64,000 nt of DNA from Candidatus Heimdallarchaeum aukensis (GCA_021513695.1 CP084166.1:1600001-1664000), one strand, 5' to 3'; numbered from the stretch's first letter, positions 1,174 through 43,127 are shown. Made by a program: numbers and translations. Notes: a model not told the origin generated them from the sequence alone.

Positions 1174-2628
1174 CTACTGGGGCTGCAACCAATGGCTGAG
1201 CCCTCGGCAAACAGTGAAATGAGTGAGACTGAATTTCTGACCAGTGAGGTAATCAGTAATGGTGTTACATCGAGGACGGAAAAGATATCCAAGGAACTTA
1301 CGAGCGATATTCATTCCCCTTGTTAGATCAGAATGAAAAGTGTAGTTACAGGAAGAACAATGAACTAACCCTCTAACGGGACGGGAAACTTTCCTCCCGC
1401 AACGAGCACAGTGAGAAGATGTCCCTCTTTCCTCTATTGTTAATATTCGGTGAGATTCAAAGCCTCGAAGTATAAGTGCCCGACGGAGAAGAGAGAGAAC
1501 AAGAGAAAAATTCCACTGATGAAGTTTTCTGCGAAACTTACGATTACTTTTTTCTTTTTCTTTTCCTTCTCGAACATGTTTGGGGTAACCTACAACAACG
1601 AAAAGGTCATACACTTGTGCATAACTCTCTATCGTCTGCACAACATCGCTTATAAATTGGTGAATATACGCGCGTTTAACGTTTCTATACCTCCGACGAA
1701 GAAGACCAAGAAAACGGTAAACTTGGTGCTTTTTACCTAACTGGTCGTTTAAAGCTGCTTTCCTCTGAAGACGGGAAAGTTTGAGTTTATATCTATGATT
1801 GATTCTATTCCACTGTTTAGTATACCAGAATTTTATCTCTTTTTTTGTTAACTTCTTTTTAGGAGTCAGTAACACTCCTGCAGCAGGAATGTTTATCCCT
1901 AGATCTATTCCCAGCACAGCTGGGGGAAGAGAAGAAGAATTATCTCCTTGACTTGTGAGATAAAAGGAAGAAGGAGGAAGAACTTTTAATTGGAAATACA
2001 CCCACCATTCACGTGTAGAACGTTTGTATCTTAGTTCTAGACTTTTCACCCTCCCTTTCTTTAACTCTTTCTGGTGAAAATCGCTCATCTCTAAAGGTAA
2101 CCACAACTTCTGATGATAAGGTGTCTTTCTCTTCCAGGTATCTAACGAGTCTCTTATTCCTACCCACCAACGAGTAAGTGTATTATTCTTCTCTTTTGGT
2201 AGATGGACAAGAATGAACCTTTTTCCATTAATTAATTGCCTTCTTGCTCTCTTTATTGGAGGACGAGTAGGACGGGGTCTATACCCTTGTTCATATAATT
2301 GTACAGCTATATCTCTACACTCTTGGAATTCATTGTGAGAACAATAGGGAAACATTTTCTTCAAGTCGTGAGGAACAGTCTTTCTCCTCTCTTCTTCTTT
2401 TACTCTTGAAGTAGTCAGTGTCAACTCGTCTAATTTTCCTCTATGTACTCTTATTTTCCCTTTTTTTGTTCTTATACTTATTTTTCTTCTGTTGTGGTGT
2501 ATAATTCTCACATATTTTTCTATTATTCTCGTGTCTCTCCCCGTTATTCTCCTTAATCTTTCCTTTTTTCTCGTCGTCAATACCTCATTCTTTATTCTCA
2601 CTTTTAATGTTTTGACGACGTCCTCCAT
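1174..2628 (-). CDS. tnpB: TnpB-like RuvC/zinc-finger nuclease (OrfB of IS605 family)
   Basis: A RuvC-I-like LGIDLGI motif is present. The C-terminal zinc finger reads HCARCG...CSSCNYTFHSDLTRGMNIA (CxxC...CxxC followed by the HSD RuvC-III block). The N-terminus is basic and the protein is 484 aa. Confidence 0.8.
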   Translation of the reverse strand: MEDVVKTLKVRIKNEVLTTRKKERLRRITGRDTRIIEKYVRIIHHNRRKISIRTKKGKIRVHRGKLDELTLTTSRVKEEERRKTVPHDLKKMFPYCSHNEFQECRDIAVQLYEQGYRPRPTRPPIKRARRQLINGKRFILVHLPKEKNNTLTRWWVGIRDSLDTWKRKTPYHQKLWLPLEMSDFHQKELKKGRVKSLELRYKRSTREWWVYFQLKVLPPSSFYLTSQGDNSSSLPPAVLGIDLGINIPAAGVLLTPKKKLTKKEIKFWYTKQWNRINHRYKLKLSRLQRKAALNDQLGKKHQVYRFLGLLRRRYRNVKRAYIHQFISDVVQTIESYAQVYDLFVVVGYPKHVREGKEKEKSNRKFRRKLHQWNFSLVLSLLRRALILRGFESHRILTIEERGTSSHCARCGRKVSRPVRGLVHCSSCNYTFHSDLTRGMNIARKFLGYLFRPRCNTITDYLTGQKFSLTHFTVCRGLSHWLQPQ

Positions 2629-6311: not shown

Positions 6312-7757
6312 GTGAAACAGTTGTCAGTTTTTACAAAGAAAAAGGATGAGCAATTCATGGCATGGTATCTTGATGTCATTCGAAGAGCAGAAATTGTAGA
6401 CACTCGAACAGGGGTAAAAGGAGCTAACGTACTTATGAGCAACGGATATGAAATCTGGAAAAGGATGCAAAACATCTTAGATGAGAAATTCTATGGAACT
6501 AATCACAAGACCATGATATTTCCTTTATTAATTCCTGAAAAGTTCTTAATGATGGAAAAAGAACACTTTGAGGGATTTGTTCCAGAAGTAGCACTCGTTA
6601 CTCACGCTGGTGAAAAAAAATTAGAAGAAAATTACGCTTTGAGACCAACATCTGAAACTATAATGTATCACTTATATAGTCAATGGATTAGAAGTTATAC
6701 GGATCTACCTTTAAAAGTAAATCAATGGTGCAACATTATTAGAATTGACACAAAGGATACTCGACCTTTACTTCGTGACAGAGAGTTTCACTGGACAGAG
6801 GCCCATACATGTCATGAAACAGCAGAAGAAGCAGAAGAACAAGTGAAAGAATCGATGTGGATTTATTCAACATTCTTTGATGAATGCTGTTTACCTTATT
6901 TAGTACTTAAACGTCCAAAACATGACACTTTTCCTGGAGCAGAATATAGCGTAGCTTATGATTGCCCTCTTCCTGATGGAAAAAGTTTACAAATTGGGAC
7001 TACACACAATCTTGCACAAGGATTTAGCAAAGTATTTAAAATCAAGTTCCAGAAAGCAGATGGTTCACATGATTTTGCTTATCAAACATGTTACGGACTA
7101 TCCACAAGAGTCATAGCTGCCGTTATTGGAGTACATGGTGATGATCGAGGACTAATCTTACCTCCATATCTAGCACCCACACAAATAGCCATTATCCCTA
7201 TTATATTCAAAGGCAAAGAAGAAAAAGTGAAAAAAACTAGTAAAGAAATATATGAGAAAATCAAGTCGTCTGGTATAAGAGTAATATTAGATGACGGTCC
7301 TAAAACTAGTGGCTGGAAGTTTAATGAATATGAACTTCGAGGGGTACCACTAAGAATAGAAGTAGGTCCAAGAGATGTAGAAAAAGGATCAGTGATTATT
7401 GTTCGTCGTGATACAAAGGAAAAGATCGAAGTCAAAAATGAAGATATAATAGAAGAGATACAAAAATTGTTTGAAGCAATTACTACAGAATTAAAACAAA
7501 GAGCCAAAACCTTATTGGAAAAATCTGTTTCCACAATAGAAACTTTAGAAGAAATTGAAGAGAAATTCAACACAAAAAAACCTGGTTTCATCAGAACAAA
7601 CTGGTGCGGAAATAAGAAATGTGCTGAATATATAAAAGAAAACTTCCGAGCTAATATTCTAGGCACAAAGTATGGTGAAGTAGAGCAAGTTTTTGGAGAT
7701 TGCCCAGTTTGCGGTGAAAAAGCTAAACATGTTGTGTATCTTTCAAGAACCTACTAG
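6312..7757 (+). CDS. proS: prolyl-tRNA synthetase, archaeal/eukaryotic type (likely true start ATG at 6357, MAWYLDV...)
   Basis: A class II aaRS core is followed by a C-terminal zinc-binding domain (WCGNKKC...CPVCGEKAKHVVYLSRTY) characteristic of archaeal-type ProRS. The track start at 6312 is a GTG. Confidence 0.85.
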   Translation: MKQLSVFTKKKDEQFMAWYLDVIRRAEIVDTRTGVKGANVLMSNGYEIWKRMQNILDEKFYGTNHKTMIFPLLIPEKFLMMEKEHFEGFVPEVALVTHAGEKKLEENYALRPTSETIMYHLYSQWIRSYTDLPLKVNQWCNIIRIDTKDTRPLLRDREFHWTEAHTCHETAEEAEEQVKESMWIYSTFFDECCLPYLVLKRPKHDTFPGAEYSVAYDCPLPDGKSLQIGTTHNLAQGFSKVFKIKFQKADGSHDFAYQTCYGLSTRVIAAVIGVHGDDRGLILPPYLAPTQIAIIPIIFKGKEEKVKKTSKEIYEKIKSSGIRVILDDGPKTSGWKFNEYELRGVPLRIEVGPRDVEKGSVIIVRRDTKEKIEVKNEDIIEEIQKLFEAITTELKQRAKTLLEKSVSTIETLEEIEEKFNTKKPGFIRTNWCGNKKCAEYIKENFRANILGTKYGEVEQVFGDCPVCGEKAKHVVYLSRTY

Positions 7758-7866
7758 TTTTTCACTTTCTTATTTTATTTTTTAAAATCTGTGACAAACG
7801 ATAGATTTTTTTGTTTGAAAGATAGTTTTTTAATATTAATACAGTAATTAAGAAAGGAAGAGTAAA

Positions 7867-8247
7867 ATGTCAATAAGTTTACCACCAGAAAAGAAAAAAG
7901 AATTAATTAAAATATTAAAACAAATTTCACAAGGTTGTGAATTGGAAGCTTTAGCAGTTGTAACAGATGAGGGAATTAAAGTAGCTTTTTTTGCCGAGAA
8001 AAGTGCAGACCCTGATTTACTCAGCGCTGTAAGCTCGGCTGTTCTTTCCACCGGAGAGATGGTTACAAAACAGCTTTCTCACGGTTTTTTGGAACAAGTT
8101 TTAATCCGCGGTGCTAAAGGATTTACTATCTTATCTAATTTAGATCACTATCTTTTAATTGGAGCTTCTAAGGATTTACACAGCGTTGGTTTAGCTATAC
8201 AAGTAATAAGAAGGCATAGCCCCACAATTGCAGAATTGTTAAACTAA
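7867..8247 (+). CDS. Roadblock/LC7 (MglB-like) domain protein
   Basis: This 126-aa protein aligns by eye with the MglB/Roadblock pattern (ALAVVTDEGIKVAFFAE...LLSAVSSAVLSTGEMV...QVLIRGAKGFTILSNLDHYLLIGASKDLHSVGLA). Confidence 0.65.
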   Translation: MSISLPPEKKKELIKILKQISQGCELEALAVVTDEGIKVAFFAEKSADPDLLSAVSSAVLSTGEMVTKQLSHGFLEQVLIRGAKGFTILSNLDHYLLIGASKDLHSVGLAIQVIRRHSPTIAELLN

Positions 8248-8289
8248 AAAAGAATTAAAAAAAAGAACTAACTGATTAGTAAGAGAGAG

Positions 8290-9291
8290 TTAATAAAAGA
8301 GGAAACTCTTCTCTATTTCCTCTTGGCTAAAGCCAGCATTAATTCCAACAATTATTCTAATAAGATCAGAGATTTCTGCGTATTTCATTTCAAAAAAGGC
8401 AATCAATATTTTAAGATCAGTTGAAGATTTTTGACGAAATATTTTTTTCCATTTTTTGATTTGGAAACGCTCAACAGCAAATTCTATATCATGTAGAGGA
8501 ATATCATCTTTTCCCATGTAGTCAGCGAAGATTCTTTTGTATATTCCAAAATTGTACATGCTTAGGACTTCAGGAATGGAATTTGATTCTAATGCTTTTG
8601 CAATAAATGTTGTTGGTTTAATATAACGATAGGGAGCAATCCCAAGATTAATACATCTACACACCCAAATTATGTTCTTTAAGTTAACGTAGACATCAAA
8701 CTCACGAGAAATTACAGGGAGAATATAATATTCAAATTGATCTATTGCTGCGTCAACTGGTACAAAACGTCCTGTTTTCTGAAATTCAGAATAGCCTTGT
8801 TCTAATAATTGTTTGAAAGTCTGAATTTTTTCTGACTTAATGATATCAGCAATTGATGAGGAGGAAGAAAGAACTTTTTCATAATATTCATAACTGTATC
8901 TTCCAACTGGAGAAATTCTTTCTATTATTTCTTCATGAGGTTGCTTCATAAACAGTCCACGAAGAATATATCGGATATTCTCTGCATGAAATCGTTGGGA
9001 ATGAAGATCAATTATCTTTTTTGCTCTACTTGATCCCTGTTTATAAAAAGTGCTCACAGTTTGAGCAAAATGGTTCTTTAATTGTTTTGCAACTTCTGGC
9101 ATCTCTGTAACAAAATTAATATCTTGAACAATTGGACCATATTGCGTTTGCCGAAAAGCAGCTTGTAGTTCTTTAAGATTAGAAGAGGATAGAAGAAAAT
9201 TTATCTGACTTCGACTAAGTACTTTGCCTATTATTCCATGAGCTCTTCCATATAAATATCCATCTCCTGAGAACATTTCATTCACCAGCAA
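8290..9291 (-). CDS. atpC: A/V-type ATPase subunit C (homologue of eukaryotic V0 d)
   Basis: It lies immediately downstream of subunit I with a 14-nt overlap. The N-terminal pattern YLYGRAHGIIGKVLSRSQINFLL resembles the Y-x-N/R-A-R-V-R start of subunit C/d. Size (333 aa) and helical pattern fit. Confidence 0.55.
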   Translation of the reverse strand: MLVNEMFSGDGYLYGRAHGIIGKVLSRSQINFLLSSSNLKELQAAFRQTQYGPIVQDINFVTEMPEVAKQLKNHFAQTVSTFYKQGSSRAKKIIDLHSQRFHAENIRYILRGLFMKQPHEEIIERISPVGRYSYEYYEKVLSSSSSIADIIKSEKIQTFKQLLEQGYSEFQKTGRFVPVDAAIDQFEYYILPVISREFDVYVNLKNIIWVCRCINLGIAPYRYIKPTTFIAKALESNSIPEVLSMYNFGIYKRIFADYMGKDDIPLHDIEFAVERFQIKKWKKIFRQKSSTDLKILIAFFEMKYAEISDLIRIIVGINAGFSQEEIEKSFLFY

Positions 9292-12200
9292 TAGTTGTGT
9301 ATTGAATAAATTTGGTTTTCTCTAGTAATGGAGTATATTGGACACCTTCCCCTTTGTAGAACTTGGAGAAAAATTCTACCCAATGCAACCTCAGTGTCTG
9401 TAAGAATGAGAACATTCCTTCAATAGGTACAATCACAACAAGTCCCCAAACAATGCCAACAATCCAATAAATCCAAGAGGTAGCTAAAGCAGAGACGTTA
9501 TGGGTATCAACACCAGCTAAAATATATGGAAGACCACTCAAAATTGCATGGACTAGTAACATAGCTAAGATACGGCTAAAGGATAGTGTGTTAGAGAATA
9601 GAGCAATAAGATGATCTATAGCTTCCATAATCCCCTCTGTTCCTTCATGGAGATATTCGAATAGGAAAACTAGAGGAATTGAAACTAAGGCAATAATTGT
9701 AAATATTGTAGAATAGGGTTTTGGAATACTAGGAAGTGCATTTCCACCGATAAGTCGTGAAGTAGCACCAGCACCCATTAAATTATACAATACTGCAAAA
9801 AGTCCTACGTAAAAAATGGAAAGTATAATTGGAGAAATCCATGAAGCTACACCGTGACCGTATTTTTTGTTTTGTATAAATCTTAACCAGATCCCAAGTT
9901 GTATAATTACAAAACCAATAGAAATGGAAAACAATAAGAACAATGGTACTTCTTTTGTAGGCTCAATCAAAGGCAACCATTCAATATGCAAAACGTTTTC
10001 ATAAATATCAGGTAGAAATACTTCATCACCTAGAAGTGCTCCAAATAGGAAACCAAAGATAATTGAAGAAAAACCAGAAAGAGCAAGTAACTCAGAACCT
10101 TTATACAGAAATCCAGACATTGATTCATCAGGTTCAATATTCTTTTTGTTTTTCTTATAAGTTAGAAACAATCCAATCAAGAAGAGAAGTATTCCATGTC
10201 CCACATCAGCGAACATTATACCAAATATCAAGGGAAAAGTAAATTGTATAATTTTGAAGGGGTCTACTTCATGAGTTGAAGGGATACCCATTCCATCAAC
10301 TATTCCTCGAAAAACTTTAGTAACCTTATTCCCATGTTTTGTCATTGAAGGATTCGTTAATGGTACTTTTTGTTTTTCAGACATAGTTATTGGAAAATCC
10401 AATTTTTCGGTTTCTTTCTTTAAGTCTTCAACCCTATCTTTAGGAACCCAACCCCAAATTGTTGTAGTGGTTTCATCAGTTTTACATTTTTCTTCTGTTT
10501 CCAACCTTTTAATTTCTGTTTCTATTAACTCTTCTAGTGCGAAGATTTTGTCTTCTACTTTCTCCCTAATTTCATCCAATTCATGTTCTTTATGTTCTAT
10601 TTCAGTTTGAAGATTCGTGAGCTGACTTTCAATAGATTCTGAAGATATCATGCTATAGTCAATAGATAACAGCTCAAAGGAATATTCTTCTAGAACTTGT
10701 TGTATAGACTTCTTATAATCTATTAGAGACAATATGTAGACAAAGACTGTGTCACTTTTTTCTGGTTGCTCAACCTCAATGAAAATTAATTGCCCATCAG
10801 AAACTTCATTTAGGAAAAACTTTACAGCCTTAACATTCTTTTTTGGGATATTCCCCAAAAAGGTACAAGTTTCAAAATCTGGATCATCCAAGTATGGTTT
10901 AACATCAGAGCTTAAATAGGAATAAATAGGGATATATGCTTCTAATTCTGTTTTCTTCGCTTTTAATTCTTTAAGTTCGGAACTAAGATTTTCTATTTTT
11001 TCTCCATAATCTGCAATAAATTGCTCAACAAAAGATATAGCTTCATCATAGTTATCTTTTACAGCAATCTTAGAATCAGATATTGCTGGAGGAATAGATA
11101 ATCCAAGGGCTTGTTTGTATCTGCTAATTTTGGAAGATAGTAAAGTAAAATTCTGTCTTTTTTGTTTTATGTCGTTTAAAATATCTTCTGACTGTCTTCC
11201 TATCTTTTCTTGATGAAGGATACCAGTGTTATGAATAAAGGAGATTAACTTACGTGTGTGCTCCTTTGGGACTTCCATTTTAACAAACTCTACATCCTTC
11301 GGAAATAAAGCTCCTCCCTTACTGTCACCTAAATGATGATAAGGAGGAATTTCTTTTTCAATTGTTTTTTCTTCTTTCAAAGTCAAAGAACCACGATCCT
11401 TGGAAATTTTTTTAGATTTTTTATATTTCAGAGGAACATCCCTCAATTGAGTGAGTTTAACAGGAAAAGGAAGCTCTTTGAGTTCCTTTTCGAGATTAAG
11501 ATAATCATTAGGTTTAATCCAACCCCAAAGGGTGAAATTAGTTTGAGTTGTTCGACCCTGTTCTAGAATATCAAATAACTCAAGCATGAGATTAATAAAA
11601 GTGAGAAAATGCAAAAGAGTTTCACGATGTTCATCACGCAATTCTGAAATTTGAGATAAAATTTCATCGTGCTTTTCGTGCAGAAAATCATGTACATTAG
11701 CTACTGTAAGCTTGCTAGTTTCTTCATCACTGAACATATCGGCAAAAACAGACAGTTCAAAATCTATTGAAGAAAAATAGAAATTTTCTAGAATAGTCAA
11801 AACTTCATCTTGATATTCCTGGGGGGTGAGAATAAAAACCAAACGAAAATCAGGGTTAGATGATTCAATACTCCAGAAGTAATAAAGACCTTTAGTTATC
11901 TCATCAATATAAAAGGAGATAACTTTCTTATACGAATGATGGATTTCTCCAACGATAGAAAAGGTGGAAGGCCCAGAAGAAAGTAAATCTAAAGGGATAT
12001 CACCAGTCTCAAACTTATGCCGAAAATAATGAAGTTTGTCGGCAATTAGATGCTTCTTTGTTAAAGAATGATTTTCTTCAAAAAGAGAGATAAGAGAAGT
12101 TTCATGTGTATCTAAGAAAGATTTTAGTTCGGAAAGAAATCTAGAAGCATCAAAAACATCAGAGTAGTTTTTTTCTGAATATGAATAAACATCAGAAAGA

Positions 12201-12406
12201 TCTAGACCTAGTTCTTGTGATATGGTAGTAAAACGCTTTAACAAATCAGAAAAAAGCTGGCGATTATCTTCAATTTTAGCCAATTCTGAAGGAGATTGAG
12301 TATCAATTTGAACAAAATCAAAACAATCTAAATAATGTAATTTGGATACAAGAGGAAGGGAGTCGGAGGGTGACACCTGAACCTTTGAAAGTACTCTTTT
12401 TGCCAT
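9278..12406 (-). CDS. atpI: A/V-type ATPase subunit I (a), unusually long with an internally duplicated cytoplasmic N-terminal domain
   Basis: The C-terminal membrane domain carries the conserved-arginine helix SFSRILAMLLVHAILSG (cf. R-L-W-A-L-S-L-A-H-A-Q-L-S), and the FPLIFGIMFADVGHG motif is present. Two copies of a coiled-coil/GW(I/V)(K/P) module (TLWGWIKPNDY around aa 292 and TIWGWVPKDRV around aa 643) give 1042 aa versus the usual 650-700. Confidence 0.8.
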   Translation of the reverse strand: MAKRVLSKVQVSPSDSLPLVSKLHYLDCFDFVQIDTQSPSELAKIEDNRQLFSDLLKRFTTISQELGLDLSDVYSYSEKNYSDVFDASRFLSELKSFLDTHETSLISLFEENHSLTKKHLIADKLHYFRHKFETGDIPLDLLSSGPSTFSIVGEIHHSYKKVISFYIDEITKGLYYFWSIESSNPDFRLVFILTPQEYQDEVLTILENFYFSSIDFELSVFADMFSDEETSKLTVANVHDFLHEKHDEILSQISELRDEHRETLLHFLTFINLMLELFDILEQGRTTQTNFTLWGWIKPNDYLNLEKELKELPFPVKLTQLRDVPLKYKKSKKISKDRGSLTLKEEKTIEKEIPPYHHLGDSKGGALFPKDVEFVKMEVPKEHTRKLISFIHNTGILHQEKIGRQSEDILNDIKQKRQNFTLLSSKISRYKQALGLSIPPAISDSKIAVKDNYDEAISFVEQFIADYGEKIENLSSELKELKAKKTELEAYIPIYSYLSSDVKPYLDDPDFETCTFLGNIPKKNVKAVKFFLNEVSDGQLIFIEVEQPEKSDTVFVYILSLIDYKKSIQQVLEEYSFELLSIDYSMISSESIESQLTNLQTEIEHKEHELDEIREKVEDKIFALEELIETEIKRLETEEKCKTDETTTTIWGWVPKDRVEDLKKETEKLDFPITMSEKQKVPLTNPSMTKHGNKVTKVFRGIVDGMGIPSTHEVDPFKIIQFTFPLIFGIMFADVGHGILLFLIGLFLTYKKNKKNIEPDESMSGFLYKGSELLALSGFSSIIFGFLFGALLGDEVFLPDIYENVLHIEWLPLIEPTKEVPLFLLFSISIGFVIIQLGIWLRFIQNKKYGHGVASWISPIILSIFYVGLFAVLYNLMGAGATSRLIGGNALPSIPKPYSTIFTIIALVSIPLVFLFEYLHEGTEGIMEAIDHLIALFSNTLSFSRILAMLLVHAILSGLPYILAGVDTHNVSALATSWIYWIVGIVWGLVVIVPIEGMFSFLQTLRLHWVEFFSKFYKGEGVQYTPLLEKTKFIQYTTIAGE

Positions 12407-12867
12407 TAATTTCTCACCAGAATAGTAAGCAAGAACAATTTTAAAATCTTCCTACTGAACATAAGACAAAAAAAATAGTGAGCTTGTTACTAAAAAATAT
12501 GAGAAAATATTGGAGAAGAAACAAGAAAGAGAAGAATGAACTACAAAAACAAAGAAGAGAGTTAAAAAATTAAAAAAGAGATTTGAAAAAAGAATTGTTT
12601 GGTTTAAAAACCAGTGAAATTTTTCAATTTTATTCGAGAATAATTATTTTCAAATGGAAAAACAGTAAAAAAGAGAAACAATAACAGATATGCAAATAAT
12701 CAAAAAACAAAAGATGGAAGAAGGATTCATTTAAAAAGAATGACCTAAGAATAACAAAAAGTTTAATAACTTTCTAAAGGTAACTAAGGTCAGTAACCAA
12801 ATAGGTTAGATTTGTAAAAACAAGTCGAAAAAAATTTGAAAAAAACCAAACAATAGGTGAAAAATTT

Positions 12868-14004
12868 ATGGAAGAAATAGTATCTGATAAACCGTTGGTA
12901 ATAGACAACGGAACAGGATTCACAAAAAATGGATTCGCAGGAGAAGATCAACCAAGAAGTGTGTTCCCAACGCTAATAGGTTATCCAAAATACCAAATAA
13001 TAATGACTGATGTTGAACATTACGTAAGAGAATACTATATAGGAGAAGAAGCACTAAACTTGAGAGGAGTGCTCAAACTAGTATACCCAATAGAACATGG
13101 TCAAATAGGTGACTGGGACGCCATGGAAAGAATCTGGCATTACACCTTCTATAACGACCTTAGAGTTAATCCTAACGAGCATCCTATTTTGCTCACCGAA
13201 CCTCCTCTTAACAAGAATGTCAACAAGGAAAAGATGGCCGAATTAATGTTTGATACCTTTAATGTTCCTGCTATGTATATTAGCATGCAAGCTATTCTTT
13301 CGCTTTATGCTTCTGGTCGTACTACAGGTATTGTAGTCGACAGTGGTGATGGTGTTACACACATCGTTCCTGTTTACGAAGGTTTTGCAATTAGTCATGC
13401 TATTCGCAGAGCTGATATTGGTGGTCGTGATATTACTGACTATCTACGTCGTCTATTAAGACAAAGAGGATATTCCTTAACCAGCAGTGCAGAACGAGAA
13501 ATTGTTCGTGACATTAAGGAACGTCTTTGTTACGTAGCTTTAGATCCTGAAAAAGAACTCAAACTTGCTGAGAAAGTTTCTGGTATGGAAAAGACTTACA
13601 CCTTGCCAGATGGTGAAACTCTAAGCATTGGCGCTGAGCGCTTTATGGCTCCTGAATTGTTCTTCAATCCTGGTGCCATCGGTTCTGAAGAACTTCCTTT
13701 GGATGAACAGATCTATCAAGCTATCACTGATTGTGATGTCGATCTTCGTAGAGATCTTTATTCCAACATTGTTCTTTCTGGTGGATCCACCATGTTCCCA
13801 GGTTTGAAGGAGAGATTACACAAGGAACTTACTGAACTAGTCCCCGAAACTATGGAGGTTAAGATTATCGCTCCACCAGAACGTCGTTACAGTGTTTGGA
13901 TAGGAGGAAGCATCCTCAGTAGTCTTAAGACCTTTACCAAACTTTGGGTGACTAAGAAAGAGTATAAAGAAACTGGTCCTACCGCAGTTTATCGTTGTAT
14001 CTAA
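12868..14004 (+). CDS. actin (eukaryote-like, Asgard 'Lokiactin'-type)
   Basis: The protein aligns along its whole length to eukaryotic actin. Matching blocks include [84 protein letters not shown] and [19 protein letters not shown]. Confidence 0.95.
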
Positions 14005-14185: not shown

Positions 14186-15124
14186 TTGTTGGACGTCAAT
14201 TTACTCAGATCTTATTTATCTGAGCCTAACTATCGCGCTGTTTTATCGGAGATTATACATTCCCATCGTAGCCGTTCTATTGACGAACTTTCTTCTCTTT
14301 TTCCTTCTTTAACTAGTAACTACTCTTTAACTAAAATTTTGAAGAAGTTTGTAGATATAGGTATTATTAAAAGCAAGAAAATTTCCCTTGGTTCTCAAGA
14401 GCGTGAATTTTATTTTCCCAATCGGGAACTTTTACGAAGTAATTTTTATCAAGATTTGCTTTTAGAATATGAAGATCTAAATTATCCAGCCAAACTAGAT
14501 CTGGAATTTACTTATCTTTGGGAAGATTGGCCTCAGTGCCTTGTTGATAATGGTTCTTTAACCCTGTATATTGTCACCAGTACTTATTTACCTGAAAATG
14601 TAGATATTTCACACCTAACAAAGCTTCTTACTGTTTGGGCTTTAAAATATGCAAAACTATCTATTGAAAACATTCATATTTCTAATATTGTTGATATTAA
14701 AGCAACACCAGTTAAAACTAATAATCTAATAGTTATTGGTTCTGGAGAAGTCAACAAGGTTACTGCCGATATTTTATCTCTTTATGGTGACTCTTTACCT
14801 ATTCGTTTTCAATCTAAATCAATATATAGTTCCTTGACTTCCAAAAATTATTCTTCTACAAAAGGTTCTATTGTAGGTTTACTTCCAAATCCCTGGAATC
14901 CTAGCAAAATTGCTTTAATCTGTTCTAGTATGAGTTATTTTGGAACTAATATTTCACTTAAAGCTTTAATTGATGATCTTGATTCAATTATCCATCAAGA
15001 ACCCAGAATTTTATCTAATCACTCTGTTTATTCTGAAATCCCCATTCGTGTTCTTGCATCAGAAGAAAACAACAAGAATAAAGAAAAACTTGAAGGACTG
15101 AAATCTTACACTTTCAAAGAATGA
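14186..15124 (+). CDS. hypothetical protein, possible N-terminal winged-helix; TTG start
   Basis: This is a 312-aa ORF with no internal Met for about 250 residues. The N-terminal region (SIDELSSLFPSLTSNYSLTKILKKFVDIGIIKSKK) looks wHTH-like. No recognisable catalytic motifs. Confidence 0.35.
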   Translation: MLDVNLLRSYLSEPNYRAVLSEIIHSHRSRSIDELSSLFPSLTSNYSLTKILKKFVDIGIIKSKKISLGSQEREFYFPNRELLRSNFYQDLLLEYEDLNYPAKLDLEFTYLWEDWPQCLVDNGSLTLYIVTSTYLPENVDISHLTKLLTVWALKYAKLSIENIHISNIVDIKATPVKTNNLIVIGSGEVNKVTADILSLYGDSLPIRFQSKSIYSSLTSKNYSSTKGSIVGLLPNPWNPSKIALICSSMSYFGTNISLKALIDDLDSIIHQEPRILSNHSVYSEIPIRVLASEENNKNKEKLEGLKSYTFKE

Positions 15125-21139: not shown

Positions 21140-22558
21140 TTGTTAGTATTATCAAGTTGTCAATATTGTGGTAATAAAGCTCAATATTATTGTACAAATT
21201 GTGGAAAATTACTATGTTCAGAACATGCGACTGAAGCCCACACAGTCTACTATTGTAAAAACTGTGATTTAGAAGTGTATGAAAAGCAATGTCACAAGTG
21301 TGGAAACAAAACAGAATTTTCTAGAAATGATAATGTTCTCCTGTGCGAATGGTGCAAAACTCCTACAGTAGTAGATGGCTATGCCTATCATCAACAATTA
21401 CCTGAAAAAATATTTAGTTCAATACTTAGAATAAATAAAAAGATAGCTGATTTGCTTTACCTAACAGATAGATATCACAAATTAGTTGACGAAATTCTAA
21501 AAGTGCGATATGCTAAAATAAAATTATTTCCAGAAATTGAAGATGATCTCTCCATTCTAAGAACAAAAATAGACAACTTAATCAAAAAACTAAGAATCAT
21601 CAGTGATAGCTTATTTTTGAAAATAAACAAAAAGTTACAATCATTAAACTACCTTAGATCCCCAAACTTAAACAACCTTGAACCAGCTGAAGAATTAATC
21701 AATTATTTAGACAAAAACTATGAATCTTTAGGATATAGCTTACATTTAAAAATTGAGCAAATAGAAGAATACTTTGCCTCCATTGGCAAAAAAGTTGATT
21801 TTCTGAATTATCAATATACTCTTTTGAAGATAATATACCGACTTATTCCTGAAGTTGAAGGAGAGGAATTAATTGCTATCATTCCTAGAATGTGGATAAA
21901 AAAAAGTTATAAGCTCCCTAAGCGTCATGTTTTTGTTTTAACAAACAAGAACATCTACCTCTTAAGAGAAAAAGGCCTATTTCGTACAATGTTAAAATTA
22001 AAAGAGAAAATCGATCTCTCTAATGTAAGATTAGTTTCAGAATCCCAAACATTATTGAAAGGAAAGGTTGTAAAAATTTCAACATTACTTTCACAATATT
22101 CATTGTTTGGTAGAGATATAGCTATTTCAGAGTTATCAAAATATTTCAGTATCTATTATGAATACTTCAAATATTCTACAAGTGACCTCACAGTAATTAA
22201 TGAATTTAAATATTATAATTTATCTGTAAAAGATTTACGAGAAGCAATAAATAAATACCTCAACAACCTCCGTGTTTCTCTTCTTAAAAAGAGAGAAATA
22301 AAAAGAGAAATAATGTATAAAAATAGTTTAGTAGCAAGACGACAGCAGATATTACAACGATTAGCAAATATAAGACGTAAAATCCAAGAAATAACGCAAT
22401 CTAGAACAGGAAGATATCAAAGTCCTAAAGTTTTCAACAACCTGTTACAGAGACTTATGGAAGAGCAATCTCGTTTAGAAAAAGAAATAAGAATAAATGA
22501 CGCAAAAATCAGAGAGATAGATGAATTGTGGGGTGTTTTTTATGATCAAGTTTCTTAA
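21140..22558 (+). CDS. hypothetical protein with N-terminal B-box-like zinc fingers, a bPH-like segment and a C-terminal coiled coil
   Basis: The first finger reads CQYCGNKAQYYCTNCGKLLCSEHATEAH (C-x2-C-x7-C-x2-C-x4-C-x2-H-x4-H), and a second CxxC...CxxC...CxxC cluster follows. The mid-region HVFVLTNKNIYLLREKGLF...KIDLSNVRLVSESQTLLKGKV resembles bacterial PH (bPH_2) domains. The start is TTG. Confidence 0.4.
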   Translation: MLVLSSCQYCGNKAQYYCTNCGKLLCSEHATEAHTVYYCKNCDLEVYEKQCHKCGNKTEFSRNDNVLLCEWCKTPTVVDGYAYHQQLPEKIFSSILRINKKIADLLYLTDRYHKLVDEILKVRYAKIKLFPEIEDDLSILRTKIDNLIKKLRIISDSLFLKINKKLQSLNYLRSPNLNNLEPAEELINYLDKNYESLGYSLHLKIEQIEEYFASIGKKVDFLNYQYTLLKIIYRLIPEVEGEELIAIIPRMWIKKSYKLPKRHVFVLTNKNIYLLREKGLFRTMLKLKEKIDLSNVRLVSESQTLLKGKVVKISTLLSQYSLFGRDIAISELSKYFSIYYEYFKYSTSDLTVINEFKYYNLSVKDLREAINKYLNNLRVSLLKKREIKREIMYKNSLVARRQQILQRLANIRRKIQEITQSRTGRYQSPKVFNNLLQRLMEEQSRLEKEIRINDAKIREIDELWGVFYDQVS

Positions 22559-23913: not shown

Positions 23914-24846
23914 ATGAGTAACTTACCATTAGAATTTCCTTTGTATCTTAGTAATATTTCAGTAAAAGAAAAAGACACTCCAGAATTAGTTTTAACTTAT
24001 GAGGGAGATGAAACCCTTGTTGATAAATTGCTTCTAATTGGGAAGAATAATGGCTTACCTGACAACATTAATGCGGCCTTACCTTTTGAGCAAAAGAAAG
24101 TAAAAGGGAGAGTAGTTTTTGAGATTACTATCCCTATTTATGAGGACGGAGAATTTCAAGCTGTTGTGGAGTATGAAGACGAATATATTTATGAACCAGG
24201 GCAAGCTCATAATATAGTCTTTAGAGGTAAAGGTATTTTTTTGGATTTCAGAAAAATATTCCATCTTCAAAAAGAAGTTGTAAGACCAAAAGGAGCACCT
24301 AAACCTACCAAAAAAGAAACAGAACTCGAGGAAAAAATTGAAATTAAGAAAGAAGAGGATAAGCTTACTCCGTCTATTGAAAAGAAGAAAGATTTGACTC
24401 CTATTGCGGATAAAGATAACCTGCTAAAGGTTCAGCCTAAGGATTTTAGAAACTTTGATGAAAACCTTAAAACAAAACTTCTTCAGATATTGGATTATTT
24501 AGCAAATGAAAAAAGTAAAAAACTTGTTCTTGACACCATTATTCTGCCAGATATCTCTAGAACACTCAAAAGGCTAATTCTAGAAGAAATGAGGAAAAGC
24601 GTCTACGAAGCATGTTTTCCTGTAATTGTGTTGATCGAGAAGGCTCTGATATTAGGTGGTATGGTTTTTCAAGCTGTTTTTACTGATGAAACATTTGAAG
24701 AATATAAAAAAGAGGTTGTAGAAAAAATCCCAAAAATAAAAGAAAAAATCAATAGAATTGAGTTTGAACCCACAAATACTATGATAAAAGTAAAATACGA
24801 TAAAGACAAGCATTCATTTAAGAAAATGTTATATCATCAGATATAA
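23914..24846 (+). CDS. hypothetical protein
   Basis: This 310-aa ORF has a K/E-rich linker and no recognisable motifs. Confidence 0.35.
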   Translation: MSNLPLEFPLYLSNISVKEKDTPELVLTYEGDETLVDKLLLIGKNNGLPDNINAALPFEQKKVKGRVVFEITIPIYEDGEFQAVVEYEDEYIYEPGQAHNIVFRGKGIFLDFRKIFHLQKEVVRPKGAPKPTKKETELEEKIEIKKEEDKLTPSIEKKKDLTPIADKDNLLKVQPKDFRNFDENLKTKLLQILDYLANEKSKKLVLDTIILPDISRTLKRLILEEMRKSVYEACFPVIVLIEKALILGGMVFQAVFTDETFEEYKKEVVEKIPKIKEKINRIEFEPTNTMIKVKYDKDKHSFKKMLYHQI

Positions 24847-30246: not shown

Positions 30247-31545
30247 TCACGAAGGAGAGTTTAGATTAGGCGAACCGGTCATAGAGCCAGAGGAGAGAGT
30301 TGATAAACCCTCGACCACGGAAACTGGAAAAAAGAACTTTTTCCGCTCACGTGGGACAGGAAAATAAGAAAAAAAGGAAGAAGAGAGAGGGAGAGGAAGA
30401 GAACCAAAAAAGAGAAGAGAAAGGTTGCGAGAGGCGTTGCGGTCAGAGTGAACTTCAAAACCACAAGAAACGCAACGAAAAAGGTCACGAGTGACACGGG
30501 AGGAAGGAGAAACGTGACCGCAACGAGAGCAACGTTGACTGGTATAATGAGGGGGGACAGGAAGAACAGGAATATGCTTTTCTTCAGCAAGAGAGGTCAA
30601 GAAAGAGAGGAAAAAGCGATAAGACCAGCGGTTGAGAGAGCGACGAATACGTTCTCTTCCTCTAAAATTCTTTTTAGTCCATTTTTTTCTTATTTTACTA
30701 ATTTCTTCAATTACTATCGCAGAGCGTGTAACTACTGCTAAATCTACAATCTCGTGAGCTATTTGCTCACATCGGGTTTTGTTATAATTTTTTTCTTTAT
30801 TTTTCAATCTTTTTAACGCACGCCGTGCTTTTTCACTTCCTTTATCAGCATACGATTGTAGCTTTCTTCTTCTTTCATTAAACTTATGTTGTTTCCAGGC
30901 AAGATCTTTTCCGAGGTAACGTTCAATTAGAGTAAAAGAGGGATGATTAAGTGTTATTGCGGCAGCTATCTTTCTACCTACGTCTACTCCTATCGTTCCT
31001 TCTACTTGTTGAGGAGGAAAAAGGTTAAGTTCTTTACGTAAAATTATGTGCTCTACCCACTTTCTTTCCCGTTTAAAGACTTTACAACTATGCTCTTTCC
31101 ATCCTTCTCTGCGGTATGCTTCTACTCTTCTCCATCCTCCATCTAGTTTGATAGGTATAGCTATCCTTTCTTTCATCGGAGAAATAGCTAAAACAGGGTT
31201 CCCTCTCTCTGTTTCTTTTATTCCTCCACTCCTGGGAAAGTTGAACTCCAACGGTAAATTATCGAACTTTTTCACTTTCCTTGCCGCATAAACTCTTCTC
31301 TGTACCGCTTCTTGCACTTGACTGTGTAACTTCACATATTTGAACCTCTTATATACTAAATGATGGAACTCTTTTCCTGATTTCGCTTTTTCCTTGAACA
31401 CTATTATTTTATTTGCCATCTCTGTCGCTTTTTTCTGTGCTCTCTGCATGTATGCTCTTTTTCTTCTACTCGGGAGAATATTCACTTTTACTGTTTTTTC
31501 TTTCCACTTCCTTTTCTTTCCTTTTCTTCTCCCTTTCGTTTTCAT
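30247..31545 (-). CDS. tnpB: TnpB-like RuvC/zinc-finger nuclease
   Basis: RuvC-I reads IGVDVGRK and RuvC-II reads AIVIEEISK. The zinc finger reads CSRCGHVS...FRCVSCGFEVHSDRNASRNL. The K/R-rich N-terminus and low-complexity C-terminal tail probably reflect read-through of the low-complexity ends. Confidence 0.8.
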   Translation of the reverse strand: MKTKGRRKGKKRKWKEKTVKVNILPSRRKRAYMQRAQKKATEMANKIIVFKEKAKSGKEFHHLVYKRFKYVKLHSQVQEAVQRRVYAARKVKKFDNLPLEFNFPRSGGIKETERGNPVLAISPMKERIAIPIKLDGGWRRVEAYRREGWKEHSCKVFKRERKWVEHIILRKELNLFPPQQVEGTIGVDVGRKIAAAITLNHPSFTLIERYLGKDLAWKQHKFNERRRKLQSYADKGSEKARRALKRLKNKEKNYNKTRCEQIAHEIVDLAVVTRSAIVIEEISKIRKKWTKKNFRGRERIRRSLNRWSYRFFLSFLTSLAEEKHIPVLPVPPHYTSQRCSRCGHVSPSSRVTRDLFRCVSCGFEVHSDRNASRNLSLLFFGSLPLPLSSSFFSYFPVPRERKKFFFPVSVVEGLSTLSSGSMTGSPNLNSPS

Positions 31546-42035: not shown

Positions 42036-43127
42036 ATGATATGGACATCATTAGTTTACATTACCTCTGCAATTTTCATCTTATTAATTGTAATTGTTAC
42101 AATGTTGAAATACAAATTCCAGATGTCTAGTCAAGCCTTTTATTATTTTCTTTCAATGTTGATTTTTTTGATTATATGGTTTATCACTGATTTGGGCTTA
42201 ATTATAGCAAGTAACTCAAGAGATTCCGATTCTGCTAGATTTTTTTCCAAATTAGGTACAACATTCAGCATGATCGCGATGATATCTGTAATTTTTTATA
42301 CACAATTTTTAACTTCTAAAGAGTTTTTCAACTCTCCACATATTGTTATTTCGTCGTTTTTACTTGGAGGTGTTATTGCCCTTACTTTGTCTCCTGTATA
42401 TGATGTCCAAGAAGCAATTGTAGATCCTACAAATATTTTTTATATTGCAAAAGTAAATACATCATGGTTTGTTTTTGATACAGCATTACCATTATACGCA
42501 GGTTGCTTGCTGATTTATTACTTAACTAGACAAAAAAAGATTGTTCCAGAGAGACATAATTCAGCTCTAAATTTGATGATCATTGGGACAATAATAGCTT
42601 TTTTTGGGACAATAACAATTTTTGTTTCTCGAAAGGTAGTATTCATTATTTTTAACAAAATTATTTTACTTCATGTTGAATTATTAGCTGTAGCTATTGG
42701 AGCAGTTATAATGCTTATAGCAACCATTCAAGGAGGAGTAAAAACTTTCTACTATTCATCCAAGATTCATTCACTCCATATTTATGATAATATGGGGATG
42801 GATATTTACACTGCCACTTTTGAAACAAAAAGAAACGTATCAACTGGATTTATACCTGGTGTAACAAGCGCCATTTCTGTTTTTGCTACAGATTTAATCG
42901 GCAAAGATGTGAAACCTAAAGAAATATCCTTTGGGGAGTATTCGTTAATGATTGAATCTTATGGAGAAATAAATTGTTTTGTTTGTGTTGAGTATCCAAC
43001 AATAAATTTCAGAAAAGGGATACAAAATTTAATCAAACAAATTAAAGTAAACCAGTCACATCAGGAAATTTCTGAATTGATAGAAGAAATTTTAGCAATT
43101 ACCCCGATTTACCAAAAAAAACTTTAG
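42036..43127 (+). CDS. polytopic membrane protein (about 7 TM) with a C-terminal soluble alpha/beta domain, hypothetical
   Basis: Hydrophobic helices run through about aa 230, followed by about 130 aa of soluble sequence with alternating beta/alpha pattern. Confidence 0.4.
   Translation: MIWTSLVYITSAIFILLIVIVTMLKYKFQMSSQAFYYFLSMLIFLIIWFITDLGLIIASNSRDSDSARFFSKLGTTFSMIAMISVIFYTQFLTSKEFFNSPHIVISSFLLGGVIALTLSPVYDVQEAIVDPTNIFYIAKVNTSWFVFDTALPLYAGCLLIYYLTRQKKIVPERHNSALNLMIIGTIIAFFGTITIFVSRKVVFIIFNKIILLHVELLAVAIGAVIMLIATIQGGVKTFYYSSKIHSLHIYDNMGMDIYTATFETKRNVSTGFIPGVTSAISVFATDLIGKDVKPKEISFGEYSLMIESYGEINCFVCVEYPTINFRKGIQNLIKQIKVNQSHQEISELIEEILAITPIYQKKL

Follow-up and report, generated by a model that had tools for sequence, protein, structure and literature searches.

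The gene located at positions 9278-12406 on the minus strand of the window, i.e., the whole stretch of 64,000 nucleotides of Candidatus Heimdallarchaeum aukensis DNA analyzed here, almost certainly encodes the stator subunit I/a of the A/V-type rotary ATPase in a species of Ca. Heimdallarchaeum, a protein whose entire cytoplasmic N-terminal domain (aN) was copied once, by tandem duplication within the gene, on the stem of a clade of Heimdallarchaeaceae (probability of about 0.95). Rotary ATPases are classified partly on the basis of their stator, with one stalk in the F-type, two in the A-type, and three in the V-type, and from the doubled aN a novel stator geometry is expected for this A/V-ATPase, in which the anchoring of the peripheral stalks may be altered. 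The novelty consists of a stator I/a harboring two full tandem cytoplasmic arms, the family and the aN fold being already known; a literature search for a duplication or a structure of subunit I of Asgard/Heimdall ATPases retrieved no description. The features of the locus are as follows:

9278..12406, minus strand: complete subunit I/a gene, 1042 aa, with the domain order N1, linker, N2, membrane domain (open reading frame and translation)
11429..12406, minus strand: N1 (aa 1-326), the extra, more diverged N-terminal copy, consisting of proximal lobe, coiled coil, distal lobe, coiled coil, and proximal lobe
12272..12304, minus strand: N1-specific motif D35-x-Q-x-P-x-E-x-A-x-I45, located where the first long helix begins
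11519..11527, minus strand: W294-G295-W296 of N1, on the strand returning to the proximal lobe
11294..11428, minus strand: linker (aa 327-371), 45 aa, lysine-rich (11 K, 1 R, 4 E, 3 D) and predicted to be disordered
10337..11293, minus strand: N2 (aa 372-690), in the ancestral position and joined directly to the membrane domain
10448..10456, minus strand: W651-G652-W653 of N2; W653 is almost unchanged in the 31 aligned homologues, single-copy proteins among them
9281..10336, minus strand: C-terminal membrane domain (aa 691-1042), single copy, with about eight hydrophobic helices according to hydropathy scan and AlphaFold
9572..9574, minus strand: Arg945 codon, in the SFSRILAMLLVH helix, counterpart of the essential stator arginine, aligning with the SYLRLWAL helix of Stv1
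8290..9276, minus strand: subunit C/d gene (AC39 family; Pfam PF01992, E 1.8e-32)

The open reading frame proposed by the initial annotation is real and extends on the minus strand from an ATG at 12406 to a TGA at 9280-9278, for a total of 1042 aa. The protein matches the Pfam family V_ATPase_I (PF01496) with 164.1 bits (curated cutoff 30.7; E 5e-48), the chains that it matches by sequence in the PDB are V-ATPase a and V/A-ATPase I, and the best Foldseek matches of the AlphaFold model of the whole protein (pLDDT 81.1) are a subunits (E 2.5e-31). The following features of V_ATPase_I membership are found: the HMM score, the helices with the stator Arg and the LRLHWVE motif, the N-terminal dumbbell, and the adjoining ATPase subunit gene. 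The departure from the family norm lies in the presence of two N-domains in 1042 aa, versus one per polypeptide and about 600-850 aa; the extra domain is a variant feature and gives no ground for excluding the protein from the family. The PF01496 match spans only aa 487-791 and the C-terminus; since both this model and sequence profiles miss N1, the second domain is invisible to routine annotation. One member of the doubled family is annotated as "hypothetical protein".

The membrane domain had been described as single-copy, and this is borne out by the PF01496 match (164 bits) and by the invariance of S942, R945, R1006, L1007, and E1011 across 31 aligned homologues. This domain aligns in sequence with yeast Stv1, including the SYLRLWAL and LRLHWVE helices of the latter. 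It is known that the stator arginine is essential in this protein family; R945, R1006, and E1011 being invariant, the pump core is, judging from the sequence, intact.

The internal duplication of the N-terminal domain, which was the central claim of the initial annotation, is confirmed by the comparison of the protein with itself. The segments aa 8-326 (N1) and aa 376-683 (N2) are collinear paralogues sharing 22% identity in self-BLAST, with a score of 73.9 bits (E 3.7e-19) when composition-corrected and 94 bits when uncorrected. When N2 was shuffled (n = 200), the mean score was 18.9 bits (sd 2.6, maximum 33.1), so that the real repeat lies about 29 sd above the mean, far above what shuffled sequences give. 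The repeat is significant in all eight of the full-length doubled members tested (E 8e-15 to 8e-31), and the alignment of the N1 and N2 profiles with hhalign covers 312 of about 330 columns with a probability of 100% (E 2.5e-45). In the AlphaFold model, the secondary-structure elements follow the same order in N1 (aa 5-321) and N2 (aa 372-688). The paired stretches IVGEIHH...FIL (aa 151-193) and FLGNIPK...YIL (aa 516-559), already indicated as corresponding to each other, align in self-BLAST; of the two motifs reported to mark the copies, TLWGWIKPNDY is found at aa 292-302, as expected, while TIWGWVPKDRV is present but at aa 649-659 rather than at about 643. The excess length over the typical 650-700 aa also holds, because the single-domain relatives are 635-823 aa long. 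No likeness of N1 or N2 to the C-terminal domain was found. The possibility that N1 is an unrelated inserted domain was ruled out by its HMM matches to single-copy N-domains and by structure searches, in which N1 by itself matches solved aN domains.

The two copies share a core of invariant residues (T-F...G, F-Y/F-x-x-E, WGW, VP), and the W294-G295-W296 of N1, invariant in the doubled family, aligns with the W651-G652-W653 of N2. In addition, N1 harbors a motif of its own (D35-I45), which is invariant in 8/8 N1 copies, whereas the aligned columns are variable in 8/8 N2 copies; this motif is a candidate partner-binding patch, and we infer that it may lie at an interface. In the linker, the pLDDT of the full model falls below 50 at aa 332-350, and KYKK, EEK, PPY, and SKGG-x-LFPK are conserved throughout the family. 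The profile matches of all the single-copy relatives are restricted to about positions 364-680, i.e., to N2, and nearly all the single-copy relatives matched by both HMMs give a better score with that of N2 than with that of N1 (with the exception of P0043 and a tie for P0055). Hence, N2 is the copy that has kept the ancestral position and sequence character, being closer than N1 to the single-copy N-domains. A conserved internal start that would yield a protein composed of N2 and the membrane domain was discarded, since the family alignment shows no conservation of the Met with which N2 starts.

The doubled layout recurs, at 36-98% identity, in no fewer than 10 independent assemblies, each bearing the name Heimdallarchaeaceae or Heimdallarchaeota; the closed, circularized genome of Ca. 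Heimdallarchaeum endolithica PR6 (CP084167.1) is among them. The remaining relatives found (635-823 aa) possess one N-domain each, aligning with N2, and the doubled N-domain is absent from all the single-copy relatives recovered in the searches. The best single-copy match is the P0017/P0075 cluster (674 aa, from a 2.85-Mb ENA metagenome contig; 120 bits with N1 and 153 bits with N2), which has one N-domain, is about 29% identical to the doubled proteins, and lies outside the N1+N2 clade; its locus likewise contains an I-d gene pair without other ATPase genes nearby. Four candidates for a free-standing N1 protein (P0011, P0014, P0015, and P0016) are only fragments of doubled genes, resulting from frameshifts, chimerism, or truncation, and in the case of P0105 (936 aa) the gene is split, the start of N1 being matched by a 114-aa ORF upstream.

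In a neighbor-joining (NJ) tree, based on distances only and including 31 single-copy N-domains, N1 and N2 form a clade in 198/200 bootstraps, and N1 is monophyletic in 200/200. The grouping of N1 with N2 against all the single-copy domains points to one intragenic duplication. The same grouping, together with the hhalign scores (317 for N1 versus N2 and 225 for N1 versus single-copy domains), rules out a fusion with the N-domain of another lineage or of a paralogue. The branching inside N1 is broadly similar to that inside N2, and the mean identities within the two sets are close (33% for N1-N1, 35% for N2-N2). The dN/dS values are 0.17 for N1, 0.22 for N2, and 0.07 for the membrane domain, and, on this sequence measure, both N1 and N2 are under purifying selection. 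Even though N1 diverges faster, its full dumbbell fold and the purifying selection acting on it indicate a working part rather than a relic.

Concerning the neighboring genes, the likely ATG of the d gene is located at 9276, one nucleotide past the stop codon of subunit I, and the two genes are probably co-transcribed. The I-d pair is kept at every related locus examined, with an 85-aa ORF located between the two genes in Baldrarchaeia; an actin gene, and often also a Roadblock/LC7 gene, adjoins the pair across the family, in an orientation varying among loci. No further ATPase subunit was found among the ORFs of at least 100 aa in the 64-kb window, nor was a c subunit retrieved by tblastn. 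A promoter/terminator scan of the actin/I intergenic region, carried out with a bacterial sigma-70 model, revealed no excess over shuffled sequences.

What N1 might do can be approached from the architecture of the known enzymes. A-ATPases possess two filaments, which are linked by aN as a half-collar, while in V-ATPases there are three, with a collar formed by aN, C, and H, the third filament being linked via C; a single peripheral stalk, E/G (E/H), is held at each of the two ends of aN (PMC10313074). By analogy, N1, which the linker (about 45 aa) tethers to the N2 proximal lobe, would be placed in the plane that separates the membrane from the A1 head. In this position, it would carry the half-collar further round the central stalk and contribute one or two additional lobes for docking, providing in cis the same structural solution that subunit C of V-ATPases provides in trans. 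The outcome would be a more rigid stator, in which the stalks might number three, as befits an enzyme probably run as an ATP-driven ion pump in this fermentative organism; Heimdallarchaeum has no discernible terminal electron-accepting pathways (PMC8813620), which fits such a pump mode. We tentatively favor N1 as an extension of the two-stalk half-collar, and possibly as an anchor for a third stalk, at odds slightly short of even.

The most serious competitor, although improbable, is that N2 alone forms a two-stalk stator and that N1, drawing on the hub function in regulation for which aN is known, serves to dock or regulate partners other than the ATPase (for instance, membrane lipids, the cytoskeleton, or small-GTPase/Roadblock modules). 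The eukaryotic aNT binds phosphoinositides, ARNO/Arf6, RAVE, and other regulators (PMC10313074), and the invariant D35-I45 motif, absent from both N2 and the single-copy domains, the lysine-rich linker with its conserved KYKK, and the greater distance of N1 from the single-copy form, which is expected after a change of partner, are consistent with it. The proximity of the actin and Roadblock/LC7 genes to the I-d pair might point in the same direction, but genes lying side by side do not show that their products interact physically, and their orientation differs among the loci; moreover, N1 retains the shared invariant core residues and both lobes, as continued contacts of the stalk type require. 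The conservation of these stalk-binding-type lobes would also suit an N1 reaching a neighboring complex or a second set of stalks, giving rise to ATPase dimers or rows, since the flexible linker of about 45 aa could carry N1 several nanometers from N2, and F-type ATP synthases are known to oligomerize through extra stator elements. This proposal is purely conjectural and quite unlikely: A/V-ATPase dimers are not evidenced in any archaeon, and the sequence contains no pointer to a dimer interface.

In the autoinhibited eukaryotic Vo, the aNT contacts subunit d, toward which it is reported to swing, and the tight coupling of the d and I genes observed here might suggest that N1 serves as an autoinhibitory element or brake on subunit d or on the rotor when A1 is absent or ATP is low. 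Such a role appears very unlikely, given that reversible dissociation is not described for archaeal enzymes and that N2 alone could do the same job. Lastly, the doubling might be an artefact (an assembly error or the fusion of gene models) or a neutral relic being lost, and truncated or frameshifted database entries do exist (P0011, P0014, P0015, and P0105). However, these broken versions come from low-coverage short contigs, and one of them is identical to P0002 until the break, while the ORF is uninterrupted in the at least 10 independent assemblies, the circularized genome included. Besides, copies that are only 22% identical cannot represent a collapsed or expanded assembly repeat, and N1 is conserved within the family to the same degree as N2 (dN/dS 0.17 for N1), so that this explanation is effectively refuted.

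Single-copy I/a proteins of the A-type ATPases of Archaea and of the V/A-type ATPases of Bacteria, such as those of Thermus thermophilus (6R0Z chain N), Meiothermus ruber (I-NT, 3RRK), and Enterococcus hirae (NtpI, 8WCI), share with the doubled protein the membrane helix with the essential Arg, the N-terminal dumbbell fold, and the adjoining d/C gene, and N2 aligns end to end with the single-copy N-domains of Asgard archaea. Unlike them, the doubled protein has two complete tandem N-domains and a disordered basic linker (1042 versus 635-823 aa). The a subunits of eukaryotic V-ATPases (Vph1/Stv1, ATP6V0A1-4) possess one aNT, their extra length being due to loops and not to a second domain, and no sequence link to a metazoan aNT was revealed by hhalign with either the N1 or the N2 profile.

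The comparison with subunit C bears on the origin of the eukaryotic collar. This subunit has the aN fold but, to our knowledge, no detectable sequence link to aN. Foldseek searches with the N1 model also retrieve subunit C (E 7e-7 to 2e-6). None of seven N1 sequences matches V-ATPase_C (PF03223) at E up to 10, and the PDB profile search retrieves no chain of subunit C. A direct evolutionary descent of subunit C from N1 is highly improbable, because the duplication is placed within the family and eukaryotic sequences show no special closeness to either copy. A less remote, though doubtful, scenario is that Heimdallarchaeaceae arrived independently at a more complete collar of the V-ATPase type through the duplication of aN in cis, thus obtaining a third-stalk anchor without C and H; an aN duplication of this kind may have given rise to the eukaryotic subunit C, and the family would offer a living example of it. 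Heimdallarchaeaceae are archaea close to the ancestors of eukaryotes, and in them the aN module has been duplicated, retained, and kept under selection; as enrichments and closed genomes of Heimdallarchaeum exist, the question of collar origin is experimentally approachable. Subunit C (Vma5p, ATP6V1C; PDB 1U7L) is an aN-shaped dumbbell with head, neck, and foot, through which the third EG stalk is linked and the collar completed (PMC3899036). It offers a functional analogue to the role proposed for N1, with the difference that subunit C is a free-standing soluble protein, whereas N1 is always fused.

The coordinates given in the initial annotation for the A/V-ATPase stator subunit I/a (9278-12406) enclose a single unbroken ORF of 1042 codons, which lies on the minus strand (ATG at 12406, TGA at 9280-9278); the Pfam model V_ATPase_I (PF01496) matches it with 164 bits (cutoff 30.7), but only over aa 487-791 and the C-terminus. 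The internal duplication of the cytoplasmic N-terminal domain proposed in the same annotation is borne out: when aa 1-350 were compared with aa 351-700 (BLASTP), aa 8-326 and aa 376-683 formed one collinear alignment with 22% identity, scoring 73.9 bits (E 3.7e-19) with composition correction and 94 bits without it, far above the values obtained with the shuffled second half (n = 200; 18.9 +/- 2.6 bits, maximum 33). The four stretches quoted in its favour are all present and paired in this alignment, the second WGW motif lying at aa 649-659 and not at about aa 643. The repeat is significant in each of the eight full-length family members tested (E 8e-15 to 8e-31), and the profile of the extra copy (N1) aligns with that of the copy joined to the membrane domain (N2) over 312 columns with a probability of 100% and an E-value of 2.5e-45 (hhalign); the membrane domain bears no resemblance to either N-terminal half.

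A full-length AlphaFold model obtained from a 31-sequence alignment (mean pLDDT 81.1, pTM 0.60) presents an identical order of elements in aa 5-321 (N1) and aa 372-688 (N2), i.e., strand-helix-strand, a long helical pair, a strand-helix-strand-strand-helix lobe, a long return helix, and strand-helix-strand, with pLDDT below 50 in the stretch between the two. In Foldseek, the complete model matches eukaryotic V-ATPase a subunits (E 2.5e-31) and Thermus subunit I, with some 750-790 aligned columns. Modelled alone, N1 reaches a pLDDT of 84.7 and a pTM of 0.68, and its closest structural neighbours are solved a/I N-terminal domains (synaptic-vesicle a subunit, Foldseek E 1e-13, TM 0.54; Thermus I, 7e-12; crystal structure 3RRK, 1e-10); moreover, the N1 HMM matches single-copy Asgard N-domains end to end, with up to 120 bits. 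Because of these neighbours and end-to-end matches, the extra ~350 residues are a second complete aN domain, and their origin as an unrelated foreign insert, which the initial annotation had left as the alternative, is rejected. N1 alone has no match in Pfam or in a PDB sequence-profile search and is therefore missed by annotation pipelines.

The membrane domain is single-copy and carries the expected Arg helix: about eight hydrophobic helices form one set only, and S942, R945, R1006, L1007 and E1011 are among the columns invariant in 31 homologues, with R945 in the SFSRILAMLLVH helix and the last three residues in LRLHWVEF. The helices harbouring invariant residues align to the corresponding ones of yeast Stv1. 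Outside N1, subunit I is an ordinary, intact stator. The gene for the C/d subunit (AC39 family, E 1.8e-32) lies directly downstream, its likely ATG 1 nt past the subunit I stop codon.

Concerning the distribution of this layout, a word-indexed search retrieved three full-length relatives of 1042-1043 aa (98%, 62% and 55% identity), all named Candidatus Heimdallarchaeaceae. An exhaustive HMMER search of 1.84 billion cluster representatives, made with a profile of aa 1-700, gave only 63 matches at E <= 1e-3, independent doublings in distant lineages being invisible to it because N-domains diverge fast. Apart from fragments, two-domain matches (profile positions 1-695) were restricted to five clusters with lengths of 1043-1067 aa; all remaining matches, including Baldrarchaeia and Jordarchaeum proteins, cover only positions ~364-680, i.e., N2, and the length of these proteins (635-823 aa) confirms that 1042 aa is unusual. 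A later search added a split copy (P0105) and two further doubled proteins, P0104 (1043 aa) and P0107 (1065 aa), the latter encoded on a 701-kb contig. A GTDB species scan found the doubled gene in the circularised PR6 genome (Ca. Heimdallarchaeum endolithica, CP084167.1) with 96% protein identity, the DNA of the window being 91-93% identical to that genome. Public annotation of the family is uneven (entries P0010, P0011, P0014, P0015 and P0105; loci L003, L008 and L009): one full-length member bears the name "hypothetical protein", several truncated entries come from low-coverage contigs and are frameshifted or chimeric, and at L009 the gene is split into ORFs of 114 and 936 aa.

The two copies are about equally conserved within the family (mean pairwise identity 33% for N1 vs 35% for N2), and dN/dS between the window and PR6, based on small counts, is 0.17 (N1), 0.22 (N2) and 0.07 (membrane domain). 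Both share an invariant core (K8/K376, T148/T513, G153/G518, F165/F530, E169/E534, WGW, P325/P682), and N1 possesses an invariant motif of its own, D35-x-Q-x-P-x-E-x-A-x-I45, whose aligned N2 columns vary. All four observations indicate that N1 is functional. The linker (aa 327-371) is lysine-rich and predicted to be disordered, with short family-conserved motifs (KYKK, EEK, PPY, SKGG-x-LFPK).

A neighbour-joining distance tree (Kimura distances, 322 columns, 200 bootstraps) of seven N1, seven N2 and 31 single-copy N-domains joined N1 and N2 in one clade in 198/200 bootstraps, with N1 monophyletic in 200 and N2 in 131, and a broadly similar branching within each. The nearest single-copy protein (cluster P0017/P0075, 674 aa) falls outside this clade, and the hhalign scores (N1-N2 317, N1-single-copy 225, N2-single-copy 333) agree with the tree. 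The clade and these scores reject a fusion with a foreign N-domain; the simplest reading is that the domain was duplicated once, in tandem and within the gene, on the stem of the doubled clade, with conservative evolution of N2 and faster divergence of N1 thereafter.

Genes for the ATPase are scattered: besides I and d, the 64-kb window contains none of the A, B, D, E, F, H and c subunit genes. An I-d pair without A1 genes also occurs in the nearest single-copy relative (L002), and also in Baldrarchaeia (L005), where an 85-aa ORF separates I from d and a c subunit is present. Comparison of the window with six loci of relatives (L003, L004, L006, L007, L009, L010), whose proteins are only 36-40% identical to the window's, disclosed the conserved order ProRS - Roadblock/LC7 - subunit d - doubled subunit I - actin (window 6312-14004). 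The doubled-family pair is flanked by actin (window, L004, L006, L007, L010; in the window 378 aa, E 3e-132, divergent from I), often also by Roadblock/LC7, which adjoins d in the window, L003 and L009, and ProRS. Small genes for the c subunit (80-102 aa) lie alone, 7-10 kb from the I-d pair, at three loci:

L003, 10796-11038: c-subunit gene
L009, 12212-12520: c-subunit gene
L010, 247-549: c-subunit gene

The L003 product, the one translated, is a single hairpin with one Glu; its gene has two Snf7/ESCRT-III genes and one Vps4 gene as neighbours, and that of L010 a Snf7 gene.

Other features of the window are the following:

1174-2628, minus strand: 484-aa ORF with a Cas12f1-like/TnpB TNB domain (E 3.6e-6)
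30247-31545, minus strand: second TnpB-like ORF (TNB E 7.5e-19, OrfB_IS605)
21140-22558, plus strand: 472-aa ORF with only sub-threshold Pfam matches
38-538, 14186-15124, 23914-24846 and 42036-43127, plus strand: four ORFs of 166-363 aa

The first lies inside ~2 kb (909-2902) absent from PR6 at the same spot, where positions 19502 and 19535 of the PR6 stretch (L001) align to window 2903 and 908; this extra DNA has the look of an IS200/605-type insertion polymorphism. The sub-threshold matches of the 472-aa ORF, below the gathering score, are to eukaryote-typical domains, namely an N-terminal B-box zinc finger (E 3e-4 to 4.5e-4) and a myosin TH1 tail (E 2.5e-4). The four remaining ORFs have no Pfam match (14186-15124 at E <= 0.1, the others at E <= 0.001), and ARAGORN found no tRNA genes in the 64 kb. 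The window is rich in genes for translation (ProRS, ThrRS, LeuRS, an aIF5B-like GTPase, TiaS, ribosomal protein S2) and for proteostasis (prefoldin, CDC48, Hsp20).

As for the role of N1, in A-type enzymes two stalks are joined by aN as a "half-collar"; eukaryotic V-ATPases, which operate as ATP-driven pumps, have three stalks and a fuller collar formed by aN, C and H, with the third stalk linked to the second via subunit C. Since both aN termini are situated in the proximal lobe, N1 would be tethered through ~45 flexible residues beside the proximal lobe of N2. The aN domain has the shape of a dumbbell, with one E/G peripheral stalk held at its proximal end and one at its distal end (PMC10313074). 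N1 could run round the central stalk in the direction uncovered by N2, extending the half-collar and supplying extra stalk-docking lobes, a proposal to which we assign a probability of roughly 0.45; it might support a third stalk, as a cis-encoded analogue of subunit C. Ca. Heimdallarchaeum has been described as fermentative, with no discernible terminal electron acceptors (PMC8813620), and ATP-driven pumping is a plausible mode for its enzyme.

Less probably, N1 might act as a hub where lipids or regulators from outside the ATPase dock, which we consider unlikely; a bridge between complexes is a long shot, and an autoinhibitory brake acting on d or the rotor a slightly longer one. That the doubled layout is an artefact or a relic is scarcely credible: an assembly artefact is excluded by the low identity of the copies (22%) and by the presence of the doubled ORF in at least 10 independent assemblies.

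The doubled N-domain is a solid structural fact, which would surprise rotary-ATPase specialists, and its functional consequence is inferred; neither a doubled N-domain in subunit I/a nor a rotary-ATPase structure from any Asgard archaeon turned up in full-text literature searches. At the sequence level, aa 562-1028 are nearer to the a subunits of eukaryotic V-ATPases (PDB E 1.6e-25 to 1e-18) than to NtpI of Enterococcus (8e-16) or subunit I of Thermus (5e-9), which fits descent of the eukaryotic V-ATPase membrane sector from Asgard archaea. Unlike eukaryotic subunit C, N1 is fused and not free, and with a fold only partially similar and no sequence match, its membership of the subunit C family is rejected. 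That N1 was the direct ancestor of subunit C is disfavoured, since the duplication maps within the family and neither copy has any affinity to metazoan aNT (hhalign). By every other defining feature tested, the protein belongs to the V_ATPase_I family; the sole departure is from the layout with one N-domain per protein, and this doubling makes the origin of the V-type collar testable.
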